From contig JAFQDC010000007.1 of assembly GCA_017416205.1 (NCBI GenBank), positions 6,022 through 70,021 of the forward strand: a stretch of DNA of 64,000 bases. The letters are read 5' to 3'. Below are positions 4,008 to 51,010 of this stretch, piece by piece. Made by a program: the position numbers and the translations under genes. The notes under the pieces were generated by a model that was not told the DNA's origin, searched no databases, and saw only the letters and a list, made by a program, of their open reading frames with translations. How positions within the stretch are numbered: the first letter of the stretch is position 1; each line of letters begins with the position of its first letter. The stretch is from Clostridia bacterium. Lineage in GTDB: Bacteria > Bacillota > Clostridia > Oscillospirales > CAG-272.

Positions 4008-6061
<2,054 letters not shown>

Positions 6062-16394: not shown

Positions 16395-16398
16395 ATTA

Positions 16399-31715: not shown

Positions 31716-32399
31716 TCATTTGTCCTTCAGCGATTCATATACCTTTGAAAGAGCTGTTTTTTCAATACGTGATACGTAAGAACGGGAAATTCCCATAAGC
31801 TCAGCAGTCTCTCTCTGCGTTTTGGGCTTTTTTCCGTCAAGCCCGTAACGCATTTTGATGATCTCCTTTTCTCTTTTTGAAAGACTACTGTTAATTATCT
31901 TAATTGCGCTTTTTGTGCGAATTTTCTTATGTATATCATCTGCGATCGTATCTTCAACTCTGATTATATCCATATAAGTTAATGGATTTCCGTCTCTGTC
32001 TGTATCTATGGTCTCATTAATTGAAACTTCATTCTGTGTCTTTTTCTTTGATCTGAAAAACATCAAAATTTCATTTTGAATACATTTTGCGCCGTAGGTT
32101 GCAAATCCCGCTCCTTTGCTTATATCAAAGCTGTCAACAGCCTTGATCAGTCCTATTGCACCGACTGAGATAAGATCCTCTGCATCCTCCCCGTGAGAGT
32201 AATATTTTCTTACAATATGGGCAACTAGCCTAAGGTTATGCTCAATAAGCTCTCCACGTGCTGATTCGTCACCGTCTCTTGCAAGCAAAAACAGCTCCTG
32301 CTCCTTTTTTTTCGGTAATGGTGGAGGAAAGCTCGACACTGTATCCACATTCAGCACGGCAAAGCTCATAAACAGAGCAATTATTGAAAGAATATCCAT
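31716..32399 (-). CDS. sigK: sporulation sigma factor SigK (pro-sigma-K), uninterrupted
   Basis: Collinear with B. subtilis SigK (pro-sequence then FPPPLP, LIEHNLRLVAHIV, EDLISVGAIGLIKA, ISRSYVSRIEK). ATG 32399 is preceded by AAGGTG. Confidence 0.9.
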   Translation of the reverse strand: MDILSIIALFMSFAVLNVDTVSSFPPPLPKKKEQELFLLARDGDESARGELIEHNLRLVAHIVRKYYSHGEDAEDLISVGAIGLIKAVDSFDISKGAGFATYGAKCIQNEILMFFRSKKKTQNEVSINETIDTDRDGNPLTYMDIIRVEDTIADDIHKKIRTKSAIKIINSSLSKREKEIIKMRYGLDGKKPKTQRETAELMGISRSYVSRIEKTALSKVYESLKDK

Positions 32400-32505
32400 A
32401 GAAATCACACCTTTCACATATCTCTGTCATTATATGCAGCTACTGCTTGACCTGCGAATAAAAAAAGTGTAAAATAATTAAAATTGCAAAAAAGGAAAGA
32501 CACAG

Positions 32506-33970: not shown

Positions 33971-34378
33971 ATGGATCAGAACAATACTTCAATAACAGTG
34001 CTGAAAAGCTCACTCCTTGCGCTGCTTGCTTTTATTTCTCTGTCACTCATTTTTATTATTCTTCTACCGCCGGCAATTATGCTTCTGAAGGATCCCCTGC
34101 CACTGATATCATTTTTCGGAACCGGCATACTGTTTCTTTCATCATTTGCAGGAGGAATTATCAGCTCTTGTTTTTCTAAAAACCCATTCTTTTCTCTTAT
34201 TCCTTCTACCATAGCTATACTGATACTTCTATCAGGGCCTTTGTTTTTCAAGGAAAGCTGTATTTCATTTGGGGCTGCTTTAGTGCAGTATTTTGCAGTT
34301 CCCATACTTTTTCTGTTGGGAGCATTTGCAGCCTTTGCGCTTTCAAACAAACGTCCAAAGAGACGAAAAAGAAGATGA
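33971..34378 (+). CDS. small polytopic membrane protein
   Basis: 135 aa, about 4 TM spans, basic tail KRPKRRKRR. Its SD (GGGAGG, 33959-33964) lies in the 3' arm of the yajC terminator. Confidence 0.5.
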   Translation: MDQNNTSITVLKSSLLALLAFISLSLIFIILLPPAIMLLKDPLPLISFFGTGILFLSSFAGGIISSCFSKNPFFSLIPSTIAILILLSGPLFFKESCISFGAALVQYFAVPILFLLGAFAAFALSNKRPKRRKRR

Positions 34379-34436: not shown

Positions 34437-37400
34437 TCAGTTTTGTGCTGATTCTCTTCTCTTTTTTCTTCTGAGAGTTGTTGTCATAACACCGACACCG
34501 CTCACGAACAGAAGAGCAAACCACATCCAAAGTCCGGAGTCACCGGTCTGAGGAGCATTGGGGGTATCAGATGTACCGGGAGTTTCAGGACTTTCGGGAT
34601 CATCTGAAGGCTCTTCGGGAACTGATACTGTATTTTCTACCTCGTTAGTTGTATACGTATTCTTCCCTTCTGCTACCGTAGCCTTGTTTCTTACGGTAGC
34701 TTCAGCCACAGCATCAACCTTTACCTCAAATCCGACTGTAACAGTTTCGCCTGCACCTACTTCAAGAGTCCATGTTATAGCTCCATCGTCATAAATACCG
34801 CCGTTGTCCGCTGAGCCTTCAACGTATGTAGTATACTCGGGAACAGCATCTGTAATGACTACAGTTACAGTTTCATGAGAATTATTCTTATAGCTGATCT
34901 CGTACTTGAGAACATCTCCCGCATTAACTGACTCTCCGTCAATACTTGCGTCGGGAGCATCTTTCATAAATACGTTCTTTTCAACCTCGTCCTCAACTGT
35001 GTAGTTGGAAACCTCATTTGTAAGATAAGTATTTCTGCCCTCTCTGATCTCAGCCACATTCTCGATAGTTACGCTGCCAACGTTCTTAACTTCAACCTTG
35101 AAGTTAACGGTCACAGTTTCGCCTGCCTCGACGTCAAGAGTCCATGTGAGCATTCCGCCGCTATAGGTGCCACCGTTATCAGCAGAGCCATCAACGTAAG
35201 TTGTATACTCGGGGATAGCATCGGTAATTATAACGGATGCACTGTGAGGAGCACTGTTAGTATAGGTGATAGCGTACTGAAGAATATCTCCGGCATATAC
35301 TTTCTTTCCGTCAACACTAATTTCTGTGCTTTCGGGATAGAATACGTCCTTTTTAACCTCATCGTCCACAGTATAGTTAGTCACCTTATTAGTCGTATAG
35401 GTGTTTCTGCCCTCTCTGATCTCAGCTTCGTTTTCCACAGTAGCGTTTCCTGCATCCTCAACCTTTACGTTAAAGGATACTGTCACGCTATCACCTGCTT
35501 CCATGTCAAGGGTCCAGGTGATTTTACCGTCTTCATATACACCACTATGGGTAATTGTACCTTCAACAAGTGATGTGTGCTGAGGGATAGTATCAATAAT
35601 AGTTACTCTCGCTGCTTCTCTTGATACGTTCTTATAGAAGATAGAGTATACGATCTCATCGCCTGCATACACCTTTCTTCCGTCAATGCTTACGGAATCA
35701 TTGTCTGCAAATGCAACGTTCTTTTCAACCTCATCCACTACTGTATAGTTTGTTACTTCATTGGTTGTGTAGGTATTTCTGCCAACCTTCACATCAGCTG
35801 CGTTATTGATGGTTACAGCACCTACGGAATCAACAGTTACGTTGAATCTGACCTTAACAGTCTCACCGGCATCAACACGAAGCTTCCATGTTACTACTCT
35901 GTTACTGTATACACCGTCATTATCTGCAGAGCCTTCAACATAGGTCGTGAATTCAGGGAGTTCGTCTGTGATGGTTACATCTGCTGTTTCTCTTGAATTA
36001 TTGGTATAGGATATCTCGTATACAAGCTCATCACCTGTATATACCTTATTTCCGTCTATGCTTACCTCTGTATTATCAGCGAAGAATACATCCTTTCGAA
36101 CTTCATCCTCTGCGGTGTAGATAACGACCTTATTTGTAGTATAGGAATTTCTTCCCTCTCTGATCTCAGCTTCATTGCTGATCTCAACGTCTTTGGCTTC
36201 ATCTACGGTTACGTGGAAGGATACTGTTACGCTTTCGCCTGCCTCAAGTTCAAAGGTCCAGATAATATTTCCTTTCTCGTATACGCCGTTATGGCTTACC
36301 GTTCCGTCAACAAGAGTTGTATGCTCAGGAATAATATCTGTGATAGTTACTGTAGCCGCATCTCTGCCAACATTTCTGTAGTAAATTGAGTATACAAGCT
36401 CATCACCAGCATATACTCTCCTGCCGTCGAGACTGACTTCATCATTACCTGCAAGGCTTACGTCCTTATCAAATTCCTCTGTAACTGTATAGTTGATAAC
36501 CTCGTTTGTTGTATATATGTTCCTGCCTTCCCTAACTGTAGCAGTATTTACTATATCAACGTTTTCAACCTCATCTACTGTTACTCTGAAGGATACTGTT
36601 ACAGTGTCGCCTTCATCAACGTCAAGCTCCCATGTGATCATTCCGTTTTCGTATGCAGCATTGTGACTTGCTGAATCTTTAACGTATGTTGTATACTCAG
36701 GAACTGTATCTGTGATAGTTACAGTTGCTGTGTCAGTTGCATTATTAGTGTATATGATCTCATATACAAGCTCATCACCTACGCATACCTTATCTCCGTC
36801 TATGCTTACATCAGTGTTTTCAACAAAGAATACATCCTTGGAAACATCGTCCTTAACAGTATAGTTAGTTACCTCGTTTGTGGTGTAGGAATTTCTTCCC
36901 TCTCTGATCTCAGCCTTATTGCTGATCTCAATGCTTTCAACATTGTCTACCGTTACGCGGAAGGATACTGTTACTGTATCGTTTGCTTCAACCTCAAGTG
37001 TCCATACAATAACGCCGGCTTTATATTCGCCTCCCATGGAAGCAGAGCCTTCAACGTACGTTGTATGCTCAGGAATGCGGTCCGCGATATTTACTGTTGC
37101 CGTATCCTTGCCTGTATTCTCGTAAGAAATAGAGTATACAAGCTCGTCACCAACATAAACCTTTTCACCGTCAATATTTACGAACTCGTCGATTGCAAGG
37201 AATACTTCTTTGATAACCTCGTCCTTTACAGTATAGTTTGAAACCTCATTGGTTGTATAGGTGTTGCTTCCCTCTCTGATCTCAGCCTTGTTGCTGATCT
37301 CAACGCTTTCAACATTGTCTACCGTTACGTGGAAGGACACTGTTACAGCATCGCCCTTCTCAATGTCAAGAGTCCAGGTGATCGTTCCGTTTTCATATAC

Positions 37401-40400
37401 ACCGCCGTGGCTTGCAGAGCCTTCAACGTATGTTGTATGCTCGGGAACAGTATCTGTAATAGTAACGGTTACTGTTTCTTCTGATGAATTTTCATAGCTG
37501 ATAGTATAAACAAGCTCGTCACCTATGTATACCTTTTTATTATCTATACTTACGCTGTCATCAGATGCAAGGAATACGTTCTTCACAACCTCGTCCACTA
37601 CCGTGTAGTTAGTTACAGTGTTTGTGGTATATTCATTTGTACCGTCATTAACTCTTGCTGTGTTTTCGATTGTTTCTGCACCGAGATCGGCATCTACCTT
37701 TACTGCAAAGGTAACGATCGCAGTTGTCCACGCTTCAACGTTTTCAATGCTCCATACAACGTGACCGTTTTCAAATACACCGCCCATATCCGCGGAGCCT
37801 TCAACATATGTTGTAAACTCGGGGATCTTATCGGTAATTGTAATATCAGCGGGCTTATCAGATGCATTTATAAAGCTGATCTTATAGAGGAGCTCTTCGC
37901 CCGCGTATACCTTTTTACCGTTAATACTTACGGAATCGTTTTCAGGATAGAATACGTCTTTTTCCACAAGGTTTTCAACTGTATGATTTACCACCTCGTT
38001 TGTTATATATGTATTCACACCGTCACGTACTATGGCAGCATTATCTATGACAGCATCCGTTTCAGCTACTTCAACCTTGAAGGATACGGTTACGCTCTCA
38101 TCTGCCTTTACGTTGAGTATCCAGTTGATATGATCGCCTGCGTACTTTCCGTTATGGGAAGCAGAGCCATTTACGTAGGTTGTGTGCTCAGGAATCGCAT
38201 CAAGGATATCGGCAATTACGTCTGCTCCGGTATAGTTTGTGTAGGTAATACTGTAAGTAAGGATATCACCCGCATTTACCTTTTCTCCGTCGATAACGGT
38301 TGAGGTATCGCCTTCCTTATAAACTTCCTTCTTTGCTACATCATCAACTGCAGCATTTGTAAAGGATACGCTTTCATTGAGCTTAGCTTTTCCCCTAACA
38401 GTTTCGCCTGTTGCTGCATTGATAAGCATGATCTTAAGCTGACCGTCACCGCTGTCAGTTACGTATACTGCATACTTATGGTGCGTTCTGTCATATACGA
38501 TACCATCAATGGGGTCTGCCTCTGAATCCTCTGCAATTACGAAGAAATATGTTCCTGTAGAATTGAACACTCTTGCATCAAATTCAAATTTACCGTCTGC
38601 ATTCTTTTTACTGTCGAGGAGAATCGCGTTGCTGTTTGTAATATCAAAGGTATAGTCTGTTGCATAAAGATTGAATGTGAAATCACTGTCATTCAGCGTA
38701 GCACCCTCAAGAGTCTTTGTTCCATTAAATACAAGCTCTGCCGCATCAGCTTTATAGGTGTTTTCGAACTTGATATCTGCATTTGCAGTATCTGCAGATG
38801 CTGTGAGAACTCCGTTTGTATCGGTAACTGTTACTGTAACCGTTACCGGATGATCAACGCCATTGTATATCACTCCTGCTGCAGTACCGTCATTTTCTTT
38901 TACGGTATAGGTATACTCGCCTGCCGTTTTATACGTAATTGTACTGAAGGAGAAGGTACCGTCTGACTTATTGGTTACGGTCTCTATCTCTTCGTTTCCT
39001 TCATACAGAGTGAAGGAGAATTCTCCGGATCCAGGCGCACGGCCGTGAAGTATCTTTGTGCCGCCGATTGTATACTCAGTAGACCTTGCTTCATAGTGGT
39101 TATGATAGGTTACCACATTTGAGATTGCATCCTCAAAATACCTTACTGCTGTAAGTGTTCCGGTTGCAGGATCGTTTTCAACCTCTACAACAAGGTCGTA
39201 TACAGCAGGATCGTAGCTCATTCCGTTAAGCACGTACTTATTCGTTACTGCATTGTATACTGCACCCTCGGGAATATACTCTACGATATCAAATTCGTAC
39301 TTACCTACCTTATCAAAGGTAAGAACCTCATCAAAGTCTACGAAAAGAACATCACCGTTAAGATTATTTGTTCCCTTGAGAACATAATTCTCACGGTCAC
39401 CGTTATTATACACGTAGAATGTAAATTCATCTGCTTCAAGTTTTTTTCCGGTAAGCACTTTCATAACTGCACCGTCAAGATCTATTCTGGCAGAATCGGG
39501 AGTATAACTGTTTACAAAGCTTACCCTGCCCTTTGTTGCATCTGCAGGATCTACAGTTGCAGTTTCTTTATCATTGTTGGATTTTACCTTTTCAATGTCG
39601 AGAGCAGCTATAAGATCTCCGTTAGATTCTGTTACAGAAACCGTGATACGATATTCGGCATCGGAATAGCTCCATCCGCGATCTCCCTTATTCACCTCAG
39701 AGATCACATAATGGAATGTTCCGGTCTGTGTATATACAGAGTTGAATCTTGCAGCACCTGCAGCATCTGTGACCAGCTCAAAGTCGGGCTCATTTGCAGG
39801 GTTCAGGATATTCCATTCTCTGTCGGTCTCATATACATGGAATTCAAAGCCTGCCCCAGATACAGTAGTATCGCCTGAATTATTGATAACGTCTTTAATT
39901 ATATCTACACTTACAGGGGCTGTATGGTATGTATTCTTAAAAGTGACTTCAAATATTCCGTCATCTATTATATTCTCTCTCGCATCAGTTACCTTAGCAA
40001 CAAGCTGACCACCGTTATCGGTAACTGTTACGTCAAACGCATAAACAGTTCTGTCATAGGTTACGTTCTCAACGTTACCCTTGACTTCAATAACCTGATA
40101 GGAATGTGAGCCTACTTCAGAATATGTGATACCGGAAAGTACATCTTCGATCTTAAAGATCTTCGATCCATTTTCGTCTGCAGCATATTCTACCTTTGCG
40201 CTCTTTTCCGAGATGCTTTCCCAACTGCTTCCGTTCCACTTCTGAACTGCGAATGTGAACTCTCCGCCACTGTGACTGCCCTCTGCCTCAAATATCTTAG
40301 TTCCGTCGATATCCAGGTCAACAGTTGTTGCAAAAGGAGTATACTGATTGATAATAATTGCAGTTGCGCTTGCATCCTCGGGGATCACTACTGTATTATC

Positions 40401-43400
40401 AGTGTCAGCTGTTTCTCCGGAATGATTGCGCGTGCGGAAAGAAACATCAAAATACGCACCGGGATCAGATTCTGTCACAGTCACGTCAGTTCCCGAGGGA
40501 AGATTTATGATCTCAACAGTTTCTCTCGCCTTGATGCTGAATGTCATATTGCCATCAGCGTCAACTGTAACGGTTTTATCCTCTTTTTCAGTCTGCTTTA
40601 CTGTAAAGCTCTTTCCTGAAAGATCCCCGCCTACGTTTACCACGATCTCAAAAGCAGTGTCAAGAATGCTCTGCGGAATTGCGTGGTCGCTTGCAATCTC
40701 CTTTGTAATAAAGAGATTACCGTATTCGTTAGGAGCGTTTGTGACTGTTGCCTGAGCGAACTGTGCTACGGGGGAGCTCTCGTCAAGCACCTGTGAAAGA
40801 GTGGGAACCGTTACCGTAGAATCAGACAAGCTGTCTACTTTATAATAGTCGCCGTTGATAATCTCACCGATCTCACAAGCAGTTCCGCCGGGAATACCTG
40901 CTACGTATACAGTCTCCCCTGCCTTAAGCTCAACTGTAAGAACGTTATTCTCATAAGAAGAGATATCGCCTGTTACGTCATTTCCGTTTTCGTCCCATAC
41001 AACAGGATCTGCGACCACGCCATCAGGAACTGTAACGGTAAGTGAATAGGTATCATCTGCGTTTCCGATATTTTCAGTTACACTCTTTGTAAGCTTAATA
41101 CCTGTTTTGATTGCAACGTTTACTCTACCGTTGTTGCCAAGCCATACGACAACGCTGTTGCCGTTATGTATTTCGGCAGTTTCATGAGTGTATTCGGGAG
41201 TATAGCGCTGAGTTGCAGTTTCTGTAACATTGTACTCTTTTTCAACCGTCATATTATGAAGACGACTTGTACGGAGTGATCCTACACCCAGCAGTACATA
41301 AAGCTCAACTTCGGAATTATCTGCAAGGTATGCACCAAGCACCTTTTCAACTCTATCCTCGGGAATTGCAACACCCTTATCGGAAAGAGCGTATCCTCCG
41401 TTTTCGTCAGCATTTACATACTTTTCAGCTTTATTATCGTAAAATGCCGCAGACTCCTTAAGATATCCCCACTCAGTGTAAACAAGGTATGTAACCTCTT
41501 CTGCAGCATTTGCACTGTCATTAGCATCGGGAGTAGGGCGGGTATAGGTAACGTAAGTATATACCTTGTCGCTGTCAGCAGTTTTCTTATAATCATCATA
41601 GCTCATCCAGCTGAGATCATATTTATCATCATCCCATACGATACCGTATTCGTTATTCTCGGGGATAGAAACTGCAGAACCGTCCTCTTTATTTGTGATT
41701 TCTGTGAAAATGCCCTGATTGGACTGATGATAGTAATATCTGTTTTTCTCAGAGGGCTGGAAGCCAACGTGTGCATCACCCTCATAAACTACACCGTTAT
41801 CTGCAGGGCTCATAACACCGAAACGGTTACTGTAAAAGGATACGATTCCTTCGCTGTCATCGATGTAATCATATCCGCGGATCTTGGATACGTCCACTTC
41901 TCCGTTGGGAAGAAGAATATCTGAATCAATACCCACTGTGTAATAAACACGAAGAGGGTTATATGAAAACTCTGTGATCGTAGATGTCGTGTCATCTCCT
42001 ATTGTTTCAGATACAACTCTTTCAACTATAATAGGAAGGATCTCCTGATTGATCCTTATCTCAAGCTTCTGAGTTCCGTCATTCTGCTCTACTATAGAAA
42101 TAAGGATATCCTCGGAGGTATTCCATGCTTCGTTTGTTGTCGGGTTAGTACCAGTTGCAGTATCTACCTTATAAGTACCGTCTGCATTTTTGATAACTGC
42201 ATAGGAGGAACCGAACAGAGTTACGGACTGAATATCCTTTACCTCCATATGCTGGCCGATAAAGTCAACATAAATGAGAGGAGTATCGTCTATACCGGTT
42301 GCACCGTCAGTGGAGGTGCTGCTGGATATAGGATTGAATGCACCGCTTGAAAGCTCTTCATAGATCTGCTTGAAGGTACTTTCAATCTCTGCATTGGTAA
42401 CGTCATAATAGGTATCTGCATAATTGATGTTTTCTGCGATCTTTTCTGCTGTCACAGCACCGTTCTGAGTAGGATAATTATGGTTAAAGCTCCATCCGCT
42501 ATAGGTCACACTCTGGCCTGCTGCCCACTTTTGAAAATTCTTATACGCCTCACGGATCTCACGATCTGAGTTGCTTCCGTTGAAACCGTTAGCGCCGGCA
42601 GGGTCCATCATCAGCTGTGCTACCTTATTTGTGCTTACGTCAACACCTACAGTATATACTGTAACATCACTGTCATAGTTTGCTTCAATTTTTGTTTTAT
42701 TGTATGCAGCATTAAGCAGTGTGCTGAGATAAAGATTTCTGTTACTTACGCTTGTTCCGTCTTTATCGTTATGCTTTGAAATTTCATAAAAGCCTTCCTG
42801 AGCTGCGCGGTTAGCCTGTCCGTCAGTGAGAACGATTGCAACGGGAATACGCCCCTCGACATCAGCGGCATTTGCCAAAATATTAAAGCCTCTGTCTATA
42901 CCGGACTGAAGATTTGTTCCCTGCGTATATCCGCTGTCCTTGCCAAGAACGTTCTTGTCCTTATCGTAAGCTGTAATAACACCTGCACCGGCGGCTCCGT
43001 TATTGTAATAATTGGTACATACAAGATCGATTCCGTTATTGTATGCAGCAAGAGGAAGCAGTGTTTCACTATCCTTGTTGTACGTTACAATGGAAATGCG
43101 GATATTATCGAGTTTGAGCAGATCGTCGATCAGCGAATTCGCCGCAGCTATCGTTCGCTCAAGACGGGTAACGCCGTATCTGTCCTCATCGTCCATTGAC
43201 GTTGAAGTATCCAGCACAAGAACTACGTCCATGGGACCTGTGGATGTTACTGTGCTCTTTGATGTCATCGTTGATCCAAGTGCTGAGAATACTATCTGGA
43301 AGGATTCATCATCTTCAAGCTCAACCTTGAAGGAAGAATCTTCTTCGCCCTTATTATTCAGCACGGCAGTATCTCCGTTCTTAAAAACTGACTTATCTAC

Positions 43401-43607
43401 CCATACGCGTCCCGCATATCGGTTACCGTCTACGTCAGTTCCCATCATAGATTCCCACGTATGAGCACTTCCGGGGTCAACTACTGTTCCTACCACGGCA
43501 GTCGATGCTACCGAAACTGCCATAGCAGAAAGGGGAACGTAACTAAGTATCAGAGCAAGGCAAAGAAAAACGCTCATGATCCTTTTTGAAAGCTTTGTTT
43601 TCATCAT
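34437..43607 (-). CDS. giant cell-wall-anchored adhesin (signal peptide, vWA domain, Cna-B/pilin-type Ig folds, 10 DUF11-like repeats, sortase-type sorting signal)
   Basis: AAGGAGG SD. Signal peptide ..PLSAMA. MIDAS motif VLVLDTSTSM. Five pilin-type domains with an (E/D)FxFxxY core (GEFTFAVQ, DEFTFYVY, GEFSFTLY and similar). Ten 124-aa repeats. C-terminus APQTGD, a hydrophobic segment, then RRKKRRE. Confidence 0.9.
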   Translation of the reverse strand: MMKTKLSKRIMSVFLCLALILSYVPLSAMAVSVASTAVVGTVVDPGSAHTWESMMGTDVDGNRYAGRVWVDKSVFKNGDTAVLNNKGEEDSSFKVELEDDESFQIVFSALGSTMTSKSTVTSTGPMDVVLVLDTSTSMDDEDRYGVTRLERTIAAANSLIDDLLKLDNIRISIVTYNKDSETLLPLAAYNNGIDLVCTNYYNNGAAGAGVITAYDKDKNVLGKDSGYTQGTNLQSGIDRGFNILANAADVEGRIPVAIVLTDGQANRAAQEGFYEISKHNDKDGTSVSNRNLYLSTLLNAAYNKTKIEANYDSDVTVYTVGVDVSTNKVAQLMMDPAGANGFNGSNSDREIREAYKNFQKWAAGQSVTYSGWSFNHNYPTQNGAVTAEKIAENINYADTYYDVTNAEIESTFKQIYEELSSGAFNPISSSTSTDGATGIDDTPLIYVDFIGQHMEVKDIQSVTLFGSSYAVIKNADGTYKVDTATGTNPTTNEAWNTSEDILISIVEQNDGTQKLEIRINQEILPIIVERVVSETIGDDTTSTITEFSYNPLRVYYTVGIDSDILLPNGEVDVSKIRGYDYIDDSEGIVSFYSNRFGVMSPADNGVVYEGDAHVGFQPSEKNRYYYHQSNQGIFTEITNKEDGSAVSIPENNEYGIVWDDDKYDLSWMSYDDYKKTADSDKVYTYVTYTRPTPDANDSANAAEEVTYLVYTEWGYLKESAAFYDNKAEKYVNADENGGYALSDKGVAIPEDRVEKVLGAYLADNSEVELYVLLGVGSLRTSRLHNMTVEKEYNVTETATQRYTPEYTHETAEIHNGNSVVVWLGNNGRVNVAIKTGIKLTKSVTENIGNADDTYSLTVTVPDGVVADPVVWDENGNDVTGDISSYENNVLTVELKAGETVYVAGIPGGTACEIGEIINGDYYKVDSLSDSTVTVPTLSQVLDESSPVAQFAQATVTNAPNEYGNLFITKEIASDHAIPQSILDTAFEIVVNVGGDLSGKSFTVKQTEKEDKTVTVDADGNMTFSIKARETVEIINLPSGTDVTVTESDPGAYFDVSFRTRNHSGETADTDNTVVIPEDASATAIIINQYTPFATTVDLDIDGTKIFEAEGSHSGGEFTFAVQKWNGSSWESISEKSAKVEYAADENGSKIFKIEDVLSGITYSEVGSHSYQVIEVKGNVENVTYDRTVYAFDVTVTDNGGQLVAKVTDARENIIDDGIFEVTFKNTYHTAPVSVDIIKDVINNSGDTTVSGAGFEFHVYETDREWNILNPANEPDFELVTDAAGAARFNSVYTQTGTFHYVISEVNKGDRGWSYSDAEYRITVSVTESNGDLIAALDIEKVKSNNDKETATVDPADATKGRVSFVNSYTPDSARIDLDGAVMKVLTGKKLEADEFTFYVYNNGDRENYVLKGTNNLNGDVLFVDFDEVLTFDKVGKYEFDIVEYIPEGAVYNAVTNKYVLNGMSYDPAVYDLVVEVENDPATGTLTAVRYFEDAISNVVTYHNHYEARSTEYTIGGTKILHGRAPGSGEFSFTLYEGNEEIETVTNKSDGTFSFSTITYKTAGEYTYTVKENDGTAAGVIYNGVDHPVTVTVTVTDTNGVLTASADTANADIKFENTYKADAAELVFNGTKTLEGATLNDSDFTFNLYATDYTFDITNSNAILLDSKKNADGKFEFDARVFNSTGTYFFVIAEDSEADPIDGIVYDRTHHKYAVYVTDSGDGQLKIMLINAATGETVRGKAKLNESVSFTNAAVDDVAKKEVYKEGDTSTVIDGEKVNAGDILTYSITYTNYTGADVIADILDAIPEHTTYVNGSASHNGKYAGDHINWILNVKADESVTVSFKVEVAETDAVIDNAAIVRDGVNTYITNEVVNHTVENLVEKDVFYPENDSVSINGKKVYAGEELLYKISFINASDKPADITITDKIPEFTTYVEGSADMGGVFENGHVVWSIENVEAWTTAIVTFAVKVDADLGAETIENTARVNDGTNEYTTNTVTNYTVVDEVVKNVFLASDDSVSIDNKKVYIGDELVYTISYENSSEETVTVTITDTVPEHTTYVEGSASHGGVYENGTITWTLDIEKGDAVTVSFHVTVDNVESVEISNKAEIREGSNTYTTNEVSNYTVKDEVIKEVFLAIDEFVNIDGEKVYVGDELVYSISYENTGKDTATVNIADRIPEHTTYVEGSASMGGEYKAGVIVWTLEVEANDTVTVSFRVTVDNVESIEISNKAEIREGRNSYTTNEVTNYTVKDDVSKDVFFVENTDVSIDGDKVCVGDELVYEIIYTNNATDTATVTITDTVPEYTTYVKDSASHNAAYENGMITWELDVDEGDTVTVSFRVTVDEVENVDIVNTATVREGRNIYTTNEVINYTVTEEFDKDVSLAGNDEVSLDGRRVYAGDELVYSIYYRNVGRDAATVTITDIIPEHTTLVDGTVSHNGVYEKGNIIWTFELEAGESVTVSFHVTVDEAKDVEISNEAEIREGRNSYTTNKVVIYTAEDEVRKDVFFADNTEVSIDGNKVYTGDELVYEISYTNNSRETADVTITDELPEFTTYVEGSADNDGVYSNRVVTWKLRVDAGETVKVRFNVTVDSVGAVTINNAADVKVGRNTYTTNEVTNYTVVDEVEKNVAFADNDSVSIDGRKVYAGDEIVYSIFYKNVSREAARVTIIDTIPQHTSLVEGTITHSGVYEDGKITWTLDMEAGDSVTVSFNVKVEDAGNATVENEAEIREGRNTYTTNKVTNYTVDDEVKKDVFYPESTEISVDGKKVYAGDILQYAITYTNSAPHSASVIITDAIPEYTTYVDGSADNGGTYSGGMLTWTLDVEAGETVTVNFKVEVKNVGSVTIENVAEIREGRNTYLTNEVSNYTVEDEVEKNVFMKDAPDASIDGESVNAGDVLKYEISYKNNSHETVTVVITDAVPEYTTYVEGSADNGGIYDDGAITWTLEVGAGETVTVGFEVKVDAVAEATVRNKATVAEGKNTYTTNEVENTVSVPEEPSDDPESPETPGTSDTPNAPQTGDSGLWMWFALLFVSGVGVMTTTLRRKKRRESAQN
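34626..38345 (-). repeat. ten tandem coding repeats of about 372 bp (124 aa, DUF11-like)
   Basis: Each unit reads ..KDVF..D.VSIDG.KVY.GDELVY.I.Y.N....A.VTITD.IPE.TTYV.GSA...G.Y..G.I.W.L....G..VTVSF.V.V......I.N.A.IREGRN.YTTNEV.NYTV. NYTV-type junctions fall near 34998, 35372, 35745, 36115, 36487, 36858, 37230, 37600 and 37980. Confidence 0.85.
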
Positions 43608-43684
43608 TTCTGAAAACCTCCTTGATTCATTATGTATCTTAACTTTATTTGTTAACGTGTTGATTGTATTAATGAAATATATTT

Positions 43685-44041
43685 TTATTCGTCTTTTAGT
43701 CTATCAGGACTTTGGCATATTCCGAACAGATCCTCGTGCTTTTTGAAGTATTTACAATCCTGACAGCTATCTCCGTCATCATCGTGTGCACACACGTAGT
43801 TTGCACACACATCCTGCATTGCAGTTACTATCGGATGCCCCTCATCTGTATATACGGGATATTCTATGAAATCCGGATAGATCGGTATCGGATCGTTAAA
43901 CCTTCCGTTACGTTCAAACTCCTCATAATATCCGTAACGAAGCTCGAACACCTTACCTCCTACCGTTACTTCTTTATAAAGTTCTCCCTCGCGGGGCTTT
44001 GCCGTTTCTCTTGTGTGCCTTTTCAAAAGAGTCTTAAACAT
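43685..44041 (-). CDS. small cytoplasmic Cys-rich protein of unknown function
   Basis: AAAGGAGA SD, then ATG 44041; the track start at 44152 lies in the LuxR terminator. 118 aa. C-terminal CANYVCAH..DSCQDCKYF..GICQ suggests metal binding. Ends 77 nt upstream of the adhesin gene with no hairpin between. Confidence 0.55.
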   Translation of the reverse strand: MFKTLLKRHTRETAKPREGELYKEVTVGGKVFELRYGYYEEFERNGRFNDPIPIYPDFIEYPVYTDEGHPIVTAMQDVCANYVCAHDDDGDSCQDCKYFKKHEDLFGICQSPDRLKDE

Positions 44042-44104
44042 ATTGTCTCCTTTCGGAAAAGAAGTAATTACTTGCAGATTATCACTATTTATTTGAATCA
44101 TTGT

Positions 44105-44149
44105 AAATAAAAATCTGCCATACTGTTTACAATGACAGTATAGCAGATT
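44105..44149 (-). terminator. rho-independent terminator of the LuxR-type gene
   Basis: On the minus strand AATCTGCTATACTGT / 8-nt loop / ACAGTATGGCAGATT (14 of 15 bp) followed by TTTTTATTT. Confidence 0.65.
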
Positions 44150-44239
44150 CATATGAATTCAGGTATTACCCACAGGAATGATTTTTATCCATATTTTTTC
44201 AAAAACAATAGCCAATTTCTGTAACAAGCAGTTGGATAT

Positions 44240-45499
44240 TTATAGAATTGCCGCAAACTCTTTTCTGGTCATTCCGGTCTTGTTTGACACAGTAGTTATG
44301 GCCTGTTTTACAGCTGAAACGGACATATTCAGGGTCTTTGCGATCTCCTCATTTTTCAGTCCGAAGGCTGCAAGCTTTGCCACTTCACGCTGCTTCTGAG
44401 AAAGAGTCGTTACAATAGTTCTGCCGCGGACAGAGCCTGAAAGCCGTGACCATCCCTCATTATGCACATAGTGCAAGGAATTCACCCTATCCCATATAGA
44501 AGGATCTACACGGTTAAGACGTGATTCAAGAAGCGGTCCTGCGGTTCGGACATACTCAGCCAAAAGTCCGTACAATTCATCGGGAATTGCAAGATTAATA
44601 GCTCTGTCTATATGATAGATAGCCTGCTGTTCGTTTCCGCCGCTATAATATATTACAGCACAGGTCATACGCAGGTATATCTCAGCGATAACAGAACGGT
44701 CAGCCACTGCCTGAGAGATCATTGGCTCAAGAGTATACGGTATCATCGTAAACAACGAAAGACCGCTTACGTCCTGATGTTCAAACTCCTTAGTTGCAAC
44801 GGAGTATGCTATCGCATAAAGGAATTTTGCATAAAACACCTTCGCCGCAGGCAGAGAGTCTGCAGGAAGAACATCGAAGCGCCCCATTGAAAACCATTCG
44901 GGAAAATCTGTAACGTTATATAAAATGCTATCGATTGCTGTTATAGAAAAGGACATAATGTCGCGATCTGAATTGTTTTTGGCGGGTGCTTCTGCAATAT
45001 GTATTTTTGCCTGACGCCACAAATTCAGATCTCCTCGCCAAATTGCACAAAGTCCAAGCAGCATTCCTGCGGAAATAACGGAATAAAAGCCTGAATTTCT
45101 TTTTAGAAGGAAAGAAGCATTCTCATATACCTTATCAATTTCTCCTCTTGAATAGGCGATCTCAGAAGCAAGAAGCAGCTGCGCCTCGGGATTGTCCTTT
45201 AGAGCCTCAATACTTGCTTTAGCACTGCCGGGCTCACTGTACAGATCGGTCATATGTAAAAACGGGGTCTTTCGGGGCATAGGCATATTAACACTCAGAC
45301 TTTCTGCCTCACTTAGTCTTCCTGCTTTTGTTCTGCCGTCACGGGGCTTTTGTGCATCTTTTGGTATCATCCATTCTCGTCCAAAGCGCACAGCACCCTT
45401 GATCTTTCCCTGAGAGCAAAGTATCTGCACTCTACGGGTCGACAGATTCCATTTTCCTGCTACGTCTTCAACCTTTATGTATTCACTAAAAGCTTCCAT
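44240..45499 (-). CDS. LuxR/GerE-family regulator with an additional N-terminal excisionase-type HTH and a helical-repeat middle domain
   Basis: GGAGGG SD, then ATG 45499. N-terminus VEDVAGKWNLSTRRVQILCSQGKI.GA..FGREWMIP. C-terminus LSQKQREVAKLAAFGLKNEEIAKTLNMSVSAVKQ. Confidence 0.8.
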   Translation of the reverse strand: MEAFSEYIKVEDVAGKWNLSTRRVQILCSQGKIKGAVRFGREWMIPKDAQKPRDGRTKAGRLSEAESLSVNMPMPRKTPFLHMTDLYSEPGSAKASIEALKDNPEAQLLLASEIAYSRGEIDKVYENASFLLKRNSGFYSVISAGMLLGLCAIWRGDLNLWRQAKIHIAEAPAKNNSDRDIMSFSITAIDSILYNVTDFPEWFSMGRFDVLPADSLPAAKVFYAKFLYAIAYSVATKEFEHQDVSGLSLFTMIPYTLEPMISQAVADRSVIAEIYLRMTCAVIYYSGGNEQQAIYHIDRAINLAIPDELYGLLAEYVRTAGPLLESRLNRVDPSIWDRVNSLHYVHNEGWSRLSGSVRGRTIVTTLSQKQREVAKLAAFGLKNEEIAKTLNMSVSAVKQAITTVSNKTGMTRKEFAAIL

Positions 45500-45523
45500 A
45501 TTCCCTCCATACAACGCGATAAT

Positions 45524-45669
45524 GTTCGCCAAGCGAATACATATCATTCGCTCTGCGAATATTATTATACCATAAAATCCGACAAATTCAAGATAATTTT
45601 ACTATTTTTTCGATTATTCGTCGCGTTTTGTTGTTCGCTCAACGAATAATAAATATTCGTTTTGCGAAT
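45524..45669. promoter_or_regulatory. array of CGAAT/ATTCG half-sites and palindromes (candidate operator cluster)
   Basis: GCGAAT at 45533, 45555 and 45664. ATTCGC at 45546. ATTCG at 45616 and 45655. CGAAT at 45643. TTCGC at 45525 and 45634. Includes the palindromes GCGAAT-N7-ATTCGC and CGAATA-N5-TATTCG. Confidence 0.5.
45564..45591 (-). promoter_or_regulatory. candidate sigma-A promoter of the LuxR-type gene
   Basis: On the minus strand TTGAAT (plus-strand 45586-45591), 16-bp spacer ending in TGG, TATAAT (plus-strand 45564-45569). Confidence 0.45.
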
Positions 45670-46288: not shown

Positions 46289-46909
46289 TTACTTTTTATC
46301 GGATTCGATTATGTTGAGATTATCAGGATGAATGCCTGCCTGAGTATATACTATCTCGCTTATCTGTGCAACCTGAGTATCCATAAGACCGTCCGTTTTA
46401 ACTACGATGCTTGCCGTATCTCCGTTTACTATTGCCACGCACTCCTCAAACCCCTTTGCCATCACAAGGCTTTCAATATTTGATTCACACTCTATATATC
46501 CCGCTATCTTCTGTATTTCGCTGAGTGCCTCCTGCTTCATTGAATCGATGGCGGTACTGCTCTGGGCAACTCCCGTAAGTACCTCCATAGCCTCATCGCG
46601 GGCTTTTTTTCTTGACATTGTCATTTCTGCAAAGACGTCAACTGTCTCATCTTTAATATCCGCAACCTCCTGCTCTTCCTTTTCCTTATCGGCAATTGCC
46701 TGAGACACATCCTTAAGGTCAAGTGCTACATCAAGCTTGCCATCTGTTTTTTTGTCATTCTCCGGAAGGAGGACATAGTTCAGTATCACCGCTCCGAGCA
46801 AAACCGTTATGGCACAGGCGGCAACGATCGCCTTTTTATTGATCCTCTTTACCACCTTCAAGGTAACCTCCTTTACCTTTTCAAAAATTACTTTGATCTT
46901 ATCTTTCAT
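46289..46909 (-). CDS. spoIIIAH: stage III sporulation protein AH
   Basis: Last gene of the eight-gene operon. N-terminal TM segment, acidic linker and a YscJ/FliF-like C-terminal fold pattern. Confidence 0.75.
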   Translation of the reverse strand: MKDKIKVIFEKVKEVTLKVVKRINKKAIVAACAITVLLGAVILNYVLLPENDKKTDGKLDVALDLKDVSQAIADKEKEEQEVADIKDETVDVFAEMTMSRKKARDEAMEVLTGVAQSSTAIDSMKQEALSEIQKIAGYIECESNIESLVMAKGFEECVAIVNGDTASIVVKTDGLMDTQVAQISEIVYTQAGIHPDNLNIIESDKK

Positions 46910-46972
46910 AGGTATGTTCCTTTCTTATGTATAAATTCTTTAAATCATATTCACTTGTATCTCTCTGTATTC

Positions 46973-47449
46973 CTAACCGGAAACGGCTATCTTATTGACT
47001 GATATACCGAGAGCTGCCGCAATAAGCTCTGTTACTCTGTTCTTTACCTCTGTACTCTTTCCTCCGGTGCATACTACTGCAACGCCGCGAACCTTCGGGT
47101 ATAGCTCACTGATAAGGACAGGCTCTTCCCCGTCCTTTGAGCTGATTATCACGTATTCACTTGCCTTTTGCGTCCCGTTTTCACTTGTATTCTGTGCAAA
47201 TACGAATTCCTCCTGACTGTCAAGGGTGACAACGACCGTTGCTTTTCCCACACCTTGAGCAGACGAGATAAGATCCTCAAGCTTTTCCTCTATCCTTTCC
47301 GTGTAATAGGTAACGTCGCTTTCCTTTGTTTCTACATCTTCTTTTGGCTCGGGAACAAATCGGGCAAGGATCATCAGTAAAGCACCAACAATCGCACCAC
47401 CTATCAGAATATATCTTTTGATTTTTGAATCCTTGCCGCCTTCACTCAT
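46973..47449 (-). CDS. spoIIIAG: stage III sporulation protein AG
   Basis: TM segment, then EPVLISELYPKVRGVAVVCTGG...V.ELIAAALGIS..KI.V, characteristic of SpoIIIAG. Confidence 0.8.
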   Translation of the reverse strand: MSEGGKDSKIKRYILIGGAIVGALLMILARFVPEPKEDVETKESDVTYYTERIEEKLEDLISSAQGVGKATVVVTLDSQEEFVFAQNTSENGTQKASEYVIISSKDGEEPVLISELYPKVRGVAVVCTGGKSTEVKNRVTELIAAALGISVNKIAVSG

Positions 47450-47882
47450 CGCTTACCACCTGAATTTTCTTTTGAAATATGTTACTCAGTATCTCCCCCG
47501 CCTCCTTTTCATCAAATACAGCCTTATCGCAAAGCTCAAGTACGATATTTTCTATCTCCCCGGCATCTGAACAACTCACCTTTGCATTAATGGAAGAGAG
47601 CGGTATTTCATACATTTCCGAAAGGACTCTCCCCGCACTGTTTGCATAATATTCAGCCTCACGCTGACCTTTGTTTCCCTTCTCTGTTTCCACAGCATTC
47701 TGTGAAAAAACAAATGAACCGATGACCTGCATAAGGGGAGAAAGAATAGCTATAGCAACAGCCAGAGAACCGATAAAAGAAAGATATTTTCCAAGCTTTC
47801 CCTTTTCTCCGTCAGGAGAAAGTATCCGAACTACAGCGACAAAAATACCGGCGATGAGAATCCCCCACAAATACGTTCCCAT
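47442..47882 (-). CDS. spoIIIAF: stage III sporulation protein AF
   Basis: Operon position and size, two N-terminal TM spans. ATG 47882 is preceded by GAGGT. Confidence 0.7.
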   Translation of the reverse strand: MGTYLWGILIAGIFVAVVRILSPDGEKGKLGKYLSFIGSLAVAIAILSPLMQVIGSFVFSQNAVETEKGNKGQREAEYYANSAGRVLSEMYEIPLSSINAKVSCSDAGEIENIVLELCDKAVFDEKEAGEILSNIFQKKIQVVSDE

Positions 47883-47889
47883 ACATACC

Positions 47890-49026
47890 TCATACAAAGG
47901 ATATCGGAGTTTTGCAAAACAATCCGAGTGCAATTACGTACATTACGGCGCCGCCCGCACAGGTAGCAAGCAGCAACGTACATATTCCTTTACATTCCTC
48001 AAGAAGTTTGCTCTCTGTGATACAGCCAAGCACCTCTGCCATAGCTCCCGAAAAGCCTATGGCTATACGGCTCATCAGTATCACCGCAAAGGGAGCGAAA
48101 AAGGCAACGGCAATTGCCGCGATACCACCTATCCCACAGGCGTGCTTTATAATATCAAGGCTTGAAGAAAGAACAGAAAAGGAATCGGCAACAGCAGCAC
48201 CAACAAAGGGAAGATAATTACCGATAGCAAACTTTACAGTTTTACGAAAGAATCCATCCTGAGCCGCTCCGCCTGCTGATTGCAAGGACAGAACAAAAGT
48301 CATCAGAGTCATTACTGCTATAACGCCGCCCGTTACTATGCCTCTTATTGTTTTTGTCATATAAGCAACGCCCCTATCCCCTGTCACCACCGAAATAACG
48401 GCCAGAATGAACATTCCGTTGACGCATGGGGCAAGCACCTTTGAAAAAAGAGCTTCTCCAAAGCTGATCATCAGATTTAGTCCCGTTGCGCTGACGGCTG
48501 ATGCCGTCAGATTTCCCGATGATATATATACTGCTTCCATTGCAGGAACATACAGTAGCATCGTGGATGTCATAGTATCAAGGAGAGCGCAGGCTGTACC
48601 AAGTACCTTTTCCATTACTCCCCACATACACAGCGCCATACATAAAGACGCGCAAAAGGAAAATGCACTCTTTAGAGATGCTCCCGCTACGGTGTCGGCA
48701 AGCATAGAGAAAAGCGAAGAAAATATAATGGCAAACAGAAGCAGTGCCACGGTTTCAAGCGCAGGACCTGCCGCTTTTCCTATAGCATCCTTCACCTTCT
48801 CTTCAAAAAAGGCAACATCGTATTCTGAAATATCTTCACGACTTTCGGGCAGCTCCTCTTTTATTTCATCGGGAAGAGACTCAAAAAAATCGGAAACCTC
48901 GCCTTGTGTTTTTGATACTCCGCCATCCGAGAGCTCGTACTCATACACCTTGTCCGCAAATATCTCAACAGAAAGCAAAGATGCAATAAGGATCACGGCA
49001 AAAAAACAAAATAACGCCTTTTTCAT
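47890..49026 (-). CDS. spoIIIAE: stage III sporulation protein AE
   Basis: 378 aa, signal peptide plus about 7 TM spans. Operon position. Confidence 0.8.
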   Translation of the reverse strand: MKKALFCFFAVILIASLLSVEIFADKVYEYELSDGGVSKTQGEVSDFFESLPDEIKEELPESREDISEYDVAFFEEKVKDAIGKAAGPALETVALLLFAIIFSSLFSMLADTVAGASLKSAFSFCASLCMALCMWGVMEKVLGTACALLDTMTSTMLLYVPAMEAVYISSGNLTASAVSATGLNLMISFGEALFSKVLAPCVNGMFILAVISVVTGDRGVAYMTKTIRGIVTGGVIAVMTLMTFVLSLQSAGGAAQDGFFRKTVKFAIGNYLPFVGAAVADSFSVLSSSLDIIKHACGIGGIAAIAVAFFAPFAVILMSRIAIGFSGAMAEVLGCITESKLLEECKGICTLLLATCAGGAVMYVIALGLFCKTPISFV

Positions 49027-49415
49027 TTGTTTATCAGCTCCTTTGCCAGAACCATCAGATCACCTATAAGAGGAATACTGAGAGCGATCAGCTCACATTT
49101 TGCAAAGGCTTCAACAGCTCCTCCGATTATCTCTTCTCCTGCTTCACGGCAAAGTGAAGCCGTCAGTCCTGCGATATATGCAATTCCAAGTGCGCGGAAC
49201 AATACTTTTGCATATTCATAAAAATCGCTTTGACGGCAAACTTCTATTATCTGAGAAGCTGCCCCTGAAAGGCTGTTTTCGAAGGAAAACAAAAGCAAAG
49301 TTAAAACAGTGACAGCAGCGCACGCCAGAGCCGCGCCCTTATGCTTTTCTTTTAGAATGACAGAGCCCACAGCCCCCAAAAGTGCTATGCCCGATATGCG
49401 AACGATCTCTGACAT
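49023..49415 (-). CDS. spoIIIAD: stage III sporulation protein AD
   Basis: 130 aa, 4 TM spans. 4-nt overlap with AE and 1-nt overlap with AC. Confidence 0.8.
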   Translation of the reverse strand: MSEIVRISGIALLGAVGSVILKEKHKGAALACAAVTVLTLLLFSFENSLSGAASQIIEVCRQSDFYEYAKVLFRALGIAYIAGLTASLCREAGEEIIGGAVEAFAKCELIALSIPLIGDLMVLAKELINK

Positions 49416-49609
49416 TACAGCTCAAACACATTTCTGACTGCCGTGAAAAGCTCTTCTATCTGCCCCACAAGCATGATCAGAACAATGATGATGCCTACCA
49501 CCGTTACAAGAGTTGCCTGCTCGTCTCTCCCCGTTTTCTGCAGTATCTGATTGGCAACTGCAACTATCATACCAACTCCCACAGTTTTTAAAAGAAGTGA
49601 AATATCCAT
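49415..49609 (-). CDS. spoIIIAC: stage III sporulation protein AC
   Basis: 64 aa, MDISLLLKTVGVGMIVAV..QIL...GRDEQATLVT. AAGGATGGG SD. The longer track ORF is an upstream extension. Confidence 0.8.
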   Translation of the reverse strand: MDISLLLKTVGVGMIVAVANQILQKTGRDEQATLVTVVGIIIVLIMLVGQIEELFTAVRNVFEL

Positions 49610-49625
49610 ATTCCCATCCTTTGCT

Positions 49626-50111
49626 TTATAAAAGAAGTATGACGAGAGAAAGTGCAAGAAGAACAGGCAACAGCCTGTACATCCTGAGCCTTTGAGCCAA
49701 CCGTTCCCTTCCCTCAAAAGCTGTTTTTTCAAGTCTTTTTACAGTATATGAGCAGAGCTCTGCCTGTCCCTTTTCATATCCTGCCCCTAAGGAGTTTGAA
49801 AATCTTTCCATCTCACAGAAGGCTTCTCTCGGTAGCTTTTCCTTGATCTGAGTGAGAGAAGCTGAAAGTCCTCTCTCTCGAAGAATATTCAAAAAGCCCT
49901 CTTTCTCAAGACGCTCATCTGAAAACTCCTCATATATTCTTTGAAGAGGTGTTCTGAAGGTCTCTATCTGCTGACCTATATACTCTACAAAAGCGCACAT
50001 CGCCTCTGTCATCTCAAGCTTTTTTGTTTCAACACGGCTTTTTTCGAGTCCATAGAAAAAGGCGCATAGGACAAGGACCACACCTCCTGATATTGAAGAG
50101 ACAGATACCAT
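49626..50111 (-). CDS. spoIIIAB: stage III sporulation protein AB
   Basis: 161 aa, TM segments at both ends and a helical middle, as in B. subtilis SpoIIIAB. Abuts AA. Confidence 0.75.
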   Translation of the reverse strand: MVSVSSISGGVVLVLCAFFYGLEKSRVETKKLEMTEAMCAFVEYIGQQIETFRTPLQRIYEEFSDERLEKEGFLNILRERGLSASLTQIKEKLPREAFCEMERFSNSLGAGYEKGQAELCSYTVKRLEKTAFEGRERLAQRLRMYRLLPVLLALSLVILLL

Positions 50112-51010
50112 TATTTCTCCTTGAGCCTGTTTACCTTAAGTACAAAGCCTTCTGCGCTTCGCCTGAGTCCGACCGCGTGAGAAAACACGCCTGCATCAAA
50201 GAGCTTTTTCATATAGGGCTTATTCTTAACCTCCGTAAGGTCTCTGCCGTGTACTGTTGCTATAGTGGGAACTCCAGAGCCGTGGCTTTCGATTATTGCC
50301 TCGCTATCCTCACTTCTGCCTATTTCATCACACATTATTATCTGAGGAGAAAGAGTTCTGAGGGCGATCTCCATTCCCTTTGCTCTCGGATACCCTTGCA
50401 GCGCATCCATAGTCAAGTCACCGCTGAGGCTTTGACATATCTCAAATCTCGTATCAATAACGGCGATCCTTTTACAGTACGGCTTTGATGCCATTCGTGC
50501 AACTATCTCGCGAAGGGCTGTAGTCTTTCCCTCGCCCGGAGGAGAATAGATCAGAAGGCCTTGAAAATCCTCCTCCTGCATTATTTTGCAAATACCGTCT
50601 GACGCCCCAGGGATCCTATGAGGTATCCTTATGCAGATGCTTGTTATATCGGTAACGGACAATATGCGTCTCCCCTCCGTTACCGCTCTTCCGCACACAC
50701 CTGCTCTGATGCCGCCGTCTGTGCATATGTATCCTTCCTTAATGGTCTCGCTATGGGAATACAGGGAATTTCCGCAAAGGGAACGAACTGTATAAAGGAT
50801 ATCGTCTGCAGTGCATCTTATGGGAGTCAATATACTTTTCGCACCTGCGGTGACAGAAAGAGATGCCCCCGACCTGAGTCTTATCTCAGATATATTTCCT
50901 CTGTACAGACCTCCGCTTCGCCTTACTGCCTCCCCAAGATGATGAGGCAGAAAGCTAAGCGCCGATTCCTCAAAATATGTATTTTTTCTTTCCATGCCGT
51001 GTCCTTTCAT
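50111..51010 (-). CDS. spoIIIAA: stage III sporulation protein AA (secretion-type ATPase)
   Basis: Walker A SPPGEGKTT, Walker B IIMCDEIG. First gene of the operon. The start may be 51010 or 50995. Confidence 0.85.
   Translation of the reverse strand: MKGHGMERKNTYFEESALSFLPHHLGEAVRRSGGLYRGNISEIRLRSGASLSVTAGAKSILTPIRCTADDILYTVRSLCGNSLYSHSETIKEGYICTDGGIRAGVCGRAVTEGRRILSVTDITSICIRIPHRIPGASDGICKIMQEEDFQGLLIYSPPGEGKTTALREIVARMASKPYCKRIAVIDTRFEICQSLSGDLTMDALQGYPRAKGMEIALRTLSPQIIMCDEIGRSEDSEAIIESHGSGVPTIATVHGRDLTEVKNKPYMKKLFDAGVFSHAVGLRRSAEGFVLKVNRLKEK

Follow-up and report, generated by a model that had tools for sequence, protein, structure and literature searches.

A very long vWA-headed surface protein from a gut Clostridia bacterium as a probable wall-anchored fibrillar adhesin

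Architecture of the adhesin gene and its product

The 64,000-nt stretch analysed here (positions 6,022 to 70,021 of contig JAFQDC010000007.1 from a Clostridia bacterium, hereafter the window) carries on its minus strand, at 34437..43607, a gene for a giant putative adhesin. The gene is a single uninterrupted open reading frame (ORF) of 3056 amino acids (aa) that starts with ATG, contains no internal stop and has a Shine-Dalgarno sequence (AAGGAGG) 8 nt 5' of the start codon. The mature protein has a computed mass of ~327 kDa and a computed pI of ~4.2. Horizontal transfer of the gene was considered and set aside, as its GC content (0.42–0.44) equals that of the remainder of the window. An initial annotation, made from the sequence alone, had described an adhesin head, pilin-type domains and stalk modules combined in one chain. 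Profile searches upheld every one of these architectural calls, and the combination corresponds to a fibrillar adhesin with a stalk of isopeptide domains (PMC12617251).

At the N-terminus, a signal peptide (residues 1–30, MMKTKLSKRIMSVFLCLALILSYVPLSAMA, then VSV; 43518..43607, minus) was assigned by inspection from its basic n-region, hydrophobic core and AxA site (AMA/V), in agreement with the earlier call. It is followed by conserved beta strands (residues 31–124; 43236..43517, minus), recognised in an alignment of 27 family sequences and in the structural model. These strands include an invariant “RVWVDKSV” motif with K72, and the segment has no Pfam match. The vWA domain occupies residues ~125–439 (42291..43235, minus) and matches Pfam VWA_2 and VWA. 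In the whole-protein search, VWA_2 was placed at residues 128–264 (E=1e-8), while the N-terminal segment searched alone gave 2.6e-10 for VWA_2 and 3e-10 for VWA. All five residues of the metal-ion-dependent adhesion site (MIDAS), D133-x-S135-x-S137, T231 and D262, are present and invariant in the 27 sequences, confirming the intact MIDAS proposed initially.

Across the whole head (residues 31–830), identity to each of the 26 aligned homologs ranges from 54 to 75%. The AlphaFold2 model of this region reached a moderate mean predicted local distance difference test (pLDDT) of 72.5, with values of 85–93 in the vWA core. Its top PDB fold matches were the vWA adhesins Mfa5, SpaC, PilB, RrgA and GBS104, with a vWA fold probability of 1.00. 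Since the query-normalised template-modelling (TM) scores are just 0.15–0.21, at a sequence identity of 12–13%, these matches concern the vWA core only. Conserved strands were observed on both sides of the vWA domain, with invariant K72 and D448 in the alignment. A split Ig domain around vWA of the GBS104 type was also sought, and the joined flanks matched no Pfam family, even at E<=10.

The region between the vWA domain and the stalk had been described initially as beta-rich and about 500 aa long. An unannotated region does exist there, but its size is ~390 aa (residues 440–830; 41118..42290, minus), and the model divides it into a beta-sandwich of ~200 aa and an alpha/beta subdomain of ~190 aa. 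Modelled alone, this head module reached a pLDDT of 80.5 and a predicted TM score of 0.70. Its fold matched nothing in the PDB significantly (best E=0.03), and Pfam gave no hit even at E<=10. HMMER, run in full against 1.84 billion cluster representatives, detected the module in only 134 clusters, nearly always at about residues 440–870 of very large proteins, and its first ~200 residues were more widespread than its last ~190. The module is the likely specificity determinant of this adhesin family and, having no structural relative, represents a modestly new element.

The stalk consists of 17 tandem immunoglobulin-like (Ig-like) domains belonging to three families, whose matches (PF24547, PF12892 and PF01345) all exceed the curated cut-offs. 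The two domains first called Cna-B-like are DUF7601 domains (residues 831–1092; 40332..41117, minus; PF24547 x2) with the triads K841/E915/N957 and K969/E1046/N1087. Their spacing agrees with the published K190/E263/N305 (PMC12617251), and the corresponding columns are near-invariant in the family. The five pilin-type domains belong to the FctA (Spy0128-like) family (residues 1093–1752; 38352..40331, minus; PF12892 x5, E=1.2e-51), with four additional matches to the NCBIfam model TIGR03786, “streptococcal pilin isopeptide linkage domain”. Their triads are K1104/E1174/N1225, K1238/E1304/N1366, K1383/E1443/N1503, K1518/E1571/N1616 and K1631/E1693/N1751, in which the Glu and Asn never vary. The (E/D)FxF core highlighted by the initial annotation is a true motif of the FctA family, but it is a Glu further along, in a YxYxIxE strand, that aligns with the catalytic Glu of solved pilins. 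A search of the PDB with a profile built from all five domains retrieved the S. pyogenes T-antigen (E=2.5e-13) and pilin isopeptide domains (1.1e-12), with Glu and Asn aligned.

The ten DUF11-like repeats called initially were all recovered as DUF11/CLIPPER (CnaA-like) domains (residues 1753–2996; 34620..38351, minus; PF01345 x10, E=1.4e-73; TIGR01451 x10), with a period of 124 aa. Every repeat contains an invariant Lys, the Asp of an “ITDxxP” motif and two invariant Asn in “NxYxTN”. At the protein level, the repeats are 40–72% identical in pairwise comparison. Repeats 1 and 2 diverge most (40–58% to every other repeat), while repeats 3–8 are mutually 51–72% identical. Because the first two CLIPPER repeats in the consensus of the family are similar to repeats 1 and 2, the extra copies are probably the product of internal duplication.

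According to a 2025 survey (PMC12617251), DUF7601 and FctA are CnaB-like isopeptide families with a Lys/Glu/Asn triad, and DUF11, renamed CLIPPER, is a CnaA-like family with Lys/Asp/Asn. The same work showed experimentally that a CLIPPER domain is stabilised by an isopeptide bond and described how tandem isopeptide domains build the stalks of monomeric fibrillar adhesins. Its CLIPPER adhesin, Acinetobacter B9T28_05395 (PDB 9IFR), likewise is a long monomeric adhesin with a tandem DUF11/CLIPPER stalk and the Lys/Asp/Asn residues, whereas the present protein is of the Gram-positive sortase type, with a stalk that mixes three isopeptide families and has 124-aa repeats (PMC12617251). Here, the Lys/Glu(Asp)/Asn triad is complete in 17/17 stalk domains, with family-typical spacing and near-invariance across homologs. 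These triads suggest that Lys-Asn isopeptide bonds may form in all 17 domains. With Ig-like domains spanning 4–5 nm each, the stalk would measure roughly 70–85 nm.

Other assignments were also considered for this protein. A thioester or ester-bond (TQ) adhesin was rejected, as no such domains appeared in the Pfam search. Pfam matches to LRR_adjacent, DUF4139, Top6b_C, AgI_II_C2 and an Fn3-like family on the repeats were treated as cross-hits, since at most one stretch passes alone for any of them and they overlap the CLIPPER domains. The first four exceed their cut-offs solely through summed weak matches within 34620–38351 (minus). Automated annotation of this family may therefore bear misleading labels of these four kinds.

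Sorting signal and candidate sortase

The last stalk domain is followed by a Pro/Glu/Asp-rich linker read from the sequence (residues 2997–3017, PEEPSDDPESPETPGTSDTPN; 34557..34619, minus), which may span the cell wall. The cell-wall sorting signal then occupies residues 3018–3056 and, with the stop codon, positions 34437..34556 (minus). It comprises APQTG (3018–3022), D3023, a hydrophobic helix (3025–3045) and the basic tail RRKKRR (3046–3051), all as initially described, and reads ...TPN-APQTG-D-SGLWMWFALLFVSGVGVMTTTL-RRKKRR-ESAQN. Cleavage is predicted between T3021 and G3022. APQTG begins 39 residues before the C-terminus and is followed by the hydrophobic stretch and the basic tail. This arrangement agrees with the criteria of PMC4155245 for a sorting signal, namely a pentapeptide 17–45 residues from the C-terminus, then a hydrophobic stretch and two or more basic residues. 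The NCBIfam LPXTG_anchor model found no match in the protein, and the canonical class A LPXTG is absent, position 1 being Ala.

The departure from LPXTG noted in the initial annotation is real, yet it is no oddity of a single protein. C-termini that read x-P-x-T-[G/D/S]-D and continue into a hydrophobic helix and a basic tail were found in 110 of the 120 best homologs, so that xPxTG-D is the norm of this adhesin family and LPXTG the rarity. These 110 sequences show no fixed residue at position 1 (N 29, I 23, T 13, P 12, S 10, A 8, V 6, G 5, L 2, K 1, H 1) and mostly have Q or K at position 3, while G occupies position 5 in 90 of them and D position 6 in 102. The novelty of APQTG is largely explained, because the homologs share the signal and the (S/P)PXTG type is known. 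Sortase-substrate predictors based on LPXTG-like regular expressions would therefore miss such proteins. Pro at position 2, Thr at position 4 and Asp at position 6 are conserved amid flanking linkers that cannot be aligned, which argues for selection on a recognition site. At position 5, Asp occurs in 12/110 sequences (IPKTDD, IPQTDD, NPKTDD) and Ser in 5/110 (PPTSD). Sequences of these two kinds include P0008, P0012, P0020, P0021, P0023, P0040, P0042 and P0044. In the Asp-for-Gly subgroup, a T/D cleavage site would be unusual and may reflect a different sortase specificity.

The closest described parallel is the class B sortase SrtB of C. difficile. This enzyme cuts the T/G bond in SPKTG, PPKTG, SPSTG and SPQTG but leaves LPETG uncut, and two of its substrates read ...SPKTGD... 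(PMC4155245). The Thr of PPKTG is joined by SrtB to meso-diaminopimelic acid (mDAP) of the peptidoglycan (PMC4591827). The sequence A-P-Q-T-G-D follows this clostridial class B pattern, with Pro at position 2, Thr at position 4, Gly at position 5 and then Asp. The C. difficile proteins CD2831, CD3246 and CD3392 are likewise clostridial adhesins with a non-LPXTG xPxTG, then Asp, a helix and a basic tail, anchored to mDAP by a class B “housekeeping” sortase (PMC4155245, PMC4591827). The present protein differs from them in several respects. It is about ten times larger, has a vWA head in place of a collagen-binding head, and carries Ala at position 1, which is free in its family, where the SrtB substrates have Ser or Pro. 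Upstream of CD2831 and CD3246 there is a cyclic di-GMP (c-di-GMP) riboswitch, whereas Rfam found none upstream here, and no Pro-Pro cleavage sites of the PPEP-1/ZmpI type were seen in the present protein. Control here apparently involves a LuxR-type regulator and a small Cys-rich protein.

A class B sortase ORF was identified in one related locus, a metagenome-assembled genome (MAG) of Faecousia sp. (L008), where it lies at 16033–16878 (+), 18 bp 3' of the adhesin homolog. It scores 155.2 bits against the curated class B model TIGR03064, just above the cut-off of 153.75. A class B sortase is the most likely cognate enzyme.

Gene neighbourhood, family and host

Upstream of the adhesin gene, two genes on the same strand form a conserved unit with it. 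A 435-aa regulator (44240..45547, minus) combines an HTH_17 domain (residues 23–64), a long helical middle and a LuxR/GerE-type helix-turn-helix (HTH) domain (residues 381–427), with Pfam scores of 4.8e-6 for GerE, 1.3e-6 for Sigma70_r4_2 and 1.5e-5 for HTH_17. A small Cys-rich protein of ~118 aa, predicted to be cytoplasmic (43685..44041, minus), is encoded 77 nt upstream of the adhesin gene. Its start is M38 of a 155-aa ORF, and the 118-aa start is the one used by gene callers. No Pfam, NCBIfam or PDB relative was found for it. Its 161 homologs have no Pfam domain, and the few named ones are labelled “hypothetical protein”.

The order regulator, small protein, adhesin was observed in 12 distinct relatives' loci with unrelated genomic surroundings (L004, L006–L009, L011, L015–L017, L019, L020 and L025) and was absent from 7. 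The regulator homologs in these 12 loci are 54–70% identical. Two of them, L019 and L020, match the window at 67% identity in the regulator and 54% in the small protein, but at just 26% in the adhesin head. This conserved pairing with the adhesin is a second modestly new element.

The regulator gene and the small gene are 198 nt apart, and in this gap a consensus scan placed a terminator-like hairpin of 16 pairs (44150–44111) followed by a promoter-like site (44107–44078, TTTACA-18-GATAAT; both minus), which suggests that the small gene and the adhesin gene are co-transcribed. No Rfam family reached its threshold over the window, the c-di-GMP riboswitch included, and matches near the adhesin gene were at chance level only. 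The sole Rfam match of the hairpin was a chance-level miRNA.

Further neighbours in the window include yajC and a gene for a sporulation sigma factor (31716–32417, minus) that is recognised by the SigK subfamily model. A SpoIIIAH-domain ORF lies upstream, with the apparent rest of a spoIIIA operon further upstream (46289–51010, minus). As sporulation genes flank the locus, the host is likely a spore-former. The product of a convergent ORF downstream (33971–34378, +) is a membrane protein of 135 aa whose tail reads KRPKRRKRR; no family and no homolog in any relative's locus was found for it. Several secreted proteins in the window end in what we take, by eye, to be dockerin-like repeats (DxxxDGxxNxxD...), and an 811-aa ORF presumably resembles a glycoside hydrolase family 94 (GH94) cellobiose/cellodextrin phosphorylase. 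These dockerin-like and GH94-like ORFs, at 25724–27529 (+), 58150–61197 (minus) and 16399–18834 (minus), were judged by eye and suggest a cellulosome-type, fibre-degrading lifestyle.

More than 700 homologs of the adhesin were found at E<=1e-10, and nearly all of the best 120 share vWA, DUF7601, FctA and DUF11. The few named ones are annotated as “DUF11 domain-containing protein” or “VWA domain-containing protein”. Among the closest genomes are MAGs assigned to Oscillospiraceae, Acutalibacteraceae and Faecousia that came from goat, sheep and roe-deer hindgut; the others are MAGs too. The protein belongs to a large family of Oscillospiraceae-like gut Clostridia with no characterised member.

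Mode of attachment and meaning

Taken together, these features are best explained by a stand-alone fibrillar adhesin, anchored to the wall by a sortase in an Oscillospiraceae-like gut clostridium, and not by a pilus subunit; we give this interpretation a probability of roughly 0.7. The precursor would be exported through the Sec pathway by its N-terminal signal peptide and retained in the membrane by the C-terminal hydrophobic helix and the RRKKRR tail. A sortase encoded elsewhere, most likely of class B, would then cut APQT/G between T3021 and G3022 and join the Thr to a stem peptide of the peptidoglycan. The 17 Ig-like domains would lock themselves by spontaneous Lys-Asn isopeptide bonds into a stalk resistant to proteases and force, displaying the metal-ion-dependent vWA head and the 390-aa module toward a gut ligand. 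Transcription of the adhesin gene would probably be controlled by the upstream LuxR-type regulator and the small Cys-rich protein.

Several observations weigh against this interpretation. No sortase gene was found in the window, either by tblastn with a class B sortase and S. aureus SrtA or by a scan for TLxTC-type signatures, as the initial annotation had stated, and it is for this reason that we infer a cognate enzyme from outside the window. Of the 14 loci of relatives that extend 2 kb or more downstream, only L008 has a sortase adjoining the adhesin, although so rare an adjacency (1/14) is consistent with a housekeeping sortase located elsewhere in the genome. The Ala at position 1 lies outside the S/P set tested for C. 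difficile SrtB. A PDB search with a profile of the ten CLIPPER repeats gave just weak pilin matches and did not retrieve the solved CLIPPER structure 9IFR, so the bond-forming Asn is ambiguous between the two invariant ones. Lastly, two metagenome scans yielded no same-species contig with an independent copy of the 3' half of the gene, and the last two repeats plus the tail, used as a protein query, gave nothing above 57% identity. Looking up the exact protein sequence of the regulator likewise gave no match.

The last point, a near-identical 3' half missing from the public collections searched, could also mean that the 3056-aa ORF is a chimera or an artefact of repeat expansion or collapse during assembly, as could its ten tandem repeats against 1–3 in most homologs. 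We regard this as very improbable, given that the repeats share just 49–73% DNA identity and that their longest exact word in common, 29 nt, is not long enough to confuse an ordinary assembly. Tandem Repeats Finder reported just one weak array (372 bp, 71% matches), the frame is open throughout and the conserved residues are kept in every repeat. Homologs with 6–10 repeats occur independently (P0001, P0002, P0004, P0024 and P0045). In addition, the two upstream genes together with the 5' end of the adhesin gene were recovered at 97.5% DNA identity from three unrelated public metagenome assemblies in which the same species is present (contigs L021, L022 and L023, from Logan SRR32129109 and SRR31077522 and ENA ERZ28654271), which match window positions 42606–44757. 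These contigs are 1.2–2.1 kb long and all terminate within the adhesin gene, which is why no near-identical full-length adhesin is on record.

The resemblance of parts of the protein to pilins raises the question of whether it could be a pilus tip adhesin, whose APQT would be joined to a Lys of a shaft pilin by a pilin-polymerising sortase of class C or class B before the polymer is anchored to the wall. The best fold matches of the head are vWA tip adhesins, and the S. pyogenes shaft pilin is itself made of FctA domains. Moreover, the class B sortase Spy0129 of S. pyogenes polymerises FctA-type pilins through (E/Q/V)(V/P)PTG and attaches the tip protein Cpa (PMC3019223). The five FctA domains are indeed homologous to Spy0128/T-antigen, with the Lys, Glu and Asn positions conserved, but here they are fused in tandem within one chain, whereas Spy0128 is polymerised by a sortase and encoded in a pilus operon. 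RrgA, GBS104, SpaC and P. gingivalis Mfa5 likewise carry a MIDAS vWA head on isopeptide-stabilised Ig-like domains; the likeness is confined to the vWA core, and the 390-aa module has no counterpart in the PDB. The adhesin gene lies outside any pilus islet. In the window and in ~20 relatives' loci, no gene for a shaft pilin, a basal pilin or a pilin-specific sortase was present within 10 kb, and neither pilin nor sortase genes stand beside the adhesin in the window or in 13 of the 14 loci with downstream sequence. The partners of the gene are a regulator and a small protein, the sortase of L008 stands without a pilin gene, and the built-in stalk of 17 domains makes a separate shaft unnecessary. 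A pilus tip role is accordingly unlikely. We judge it equally improbable that the C-terminus is unprocessed, with the adhesin staying on its transmembrane helix or being shed and the PxTG-like motif a relic. The window without a sortase, the absence of an LPXTG_anchor match and the Asp or Ser at position 5, which could mean relaxed constraint, would agree with such a loss of function. It is opposed by the retention of P2, T4 and D6 beside unalignable linkers, by the class B sortase that adjoins the adhesin in L008, and by the acceptance of residues other than Gly at position 5 by class B sortases, as in the NPQTN of S. aureus (PMC4155245).

Under the preferred explanation, a wall-anchored fibrillar adhesin, the protein has an architecture, isopeptide domains and an xPxTG signal class that have all been described before, and it is an ordinary though very long member of its kind that leaves current concepts unchanged. 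A more far-reaching proposal is that the three genes (the LuxR/GerE regulator with an extra HTH domain, the ~118-aa Cys-rich protein and the vWA/DUF7601/FctA adhesin) form a previously undescribed module of Oscillospiraceae-like gut bacteria and that the 390-aa module is a new ligand-binding fold. We consider this doubtful, and offer it tentatively.

Among gut anaerobes, Oscillospiraceae- and Ruminococcaceae-like bacteria are abundant and for the most part uncultured; to our knowledge, little is known of how they attach to surfaces. The family described here, with more than 700 members, is a plausible major adhesin of these organisms, and the regulator and small-protein pair could serve to switch it on in culture. 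If the head fold is indeed new, it would define what these abundant gut anaerobes stick to.

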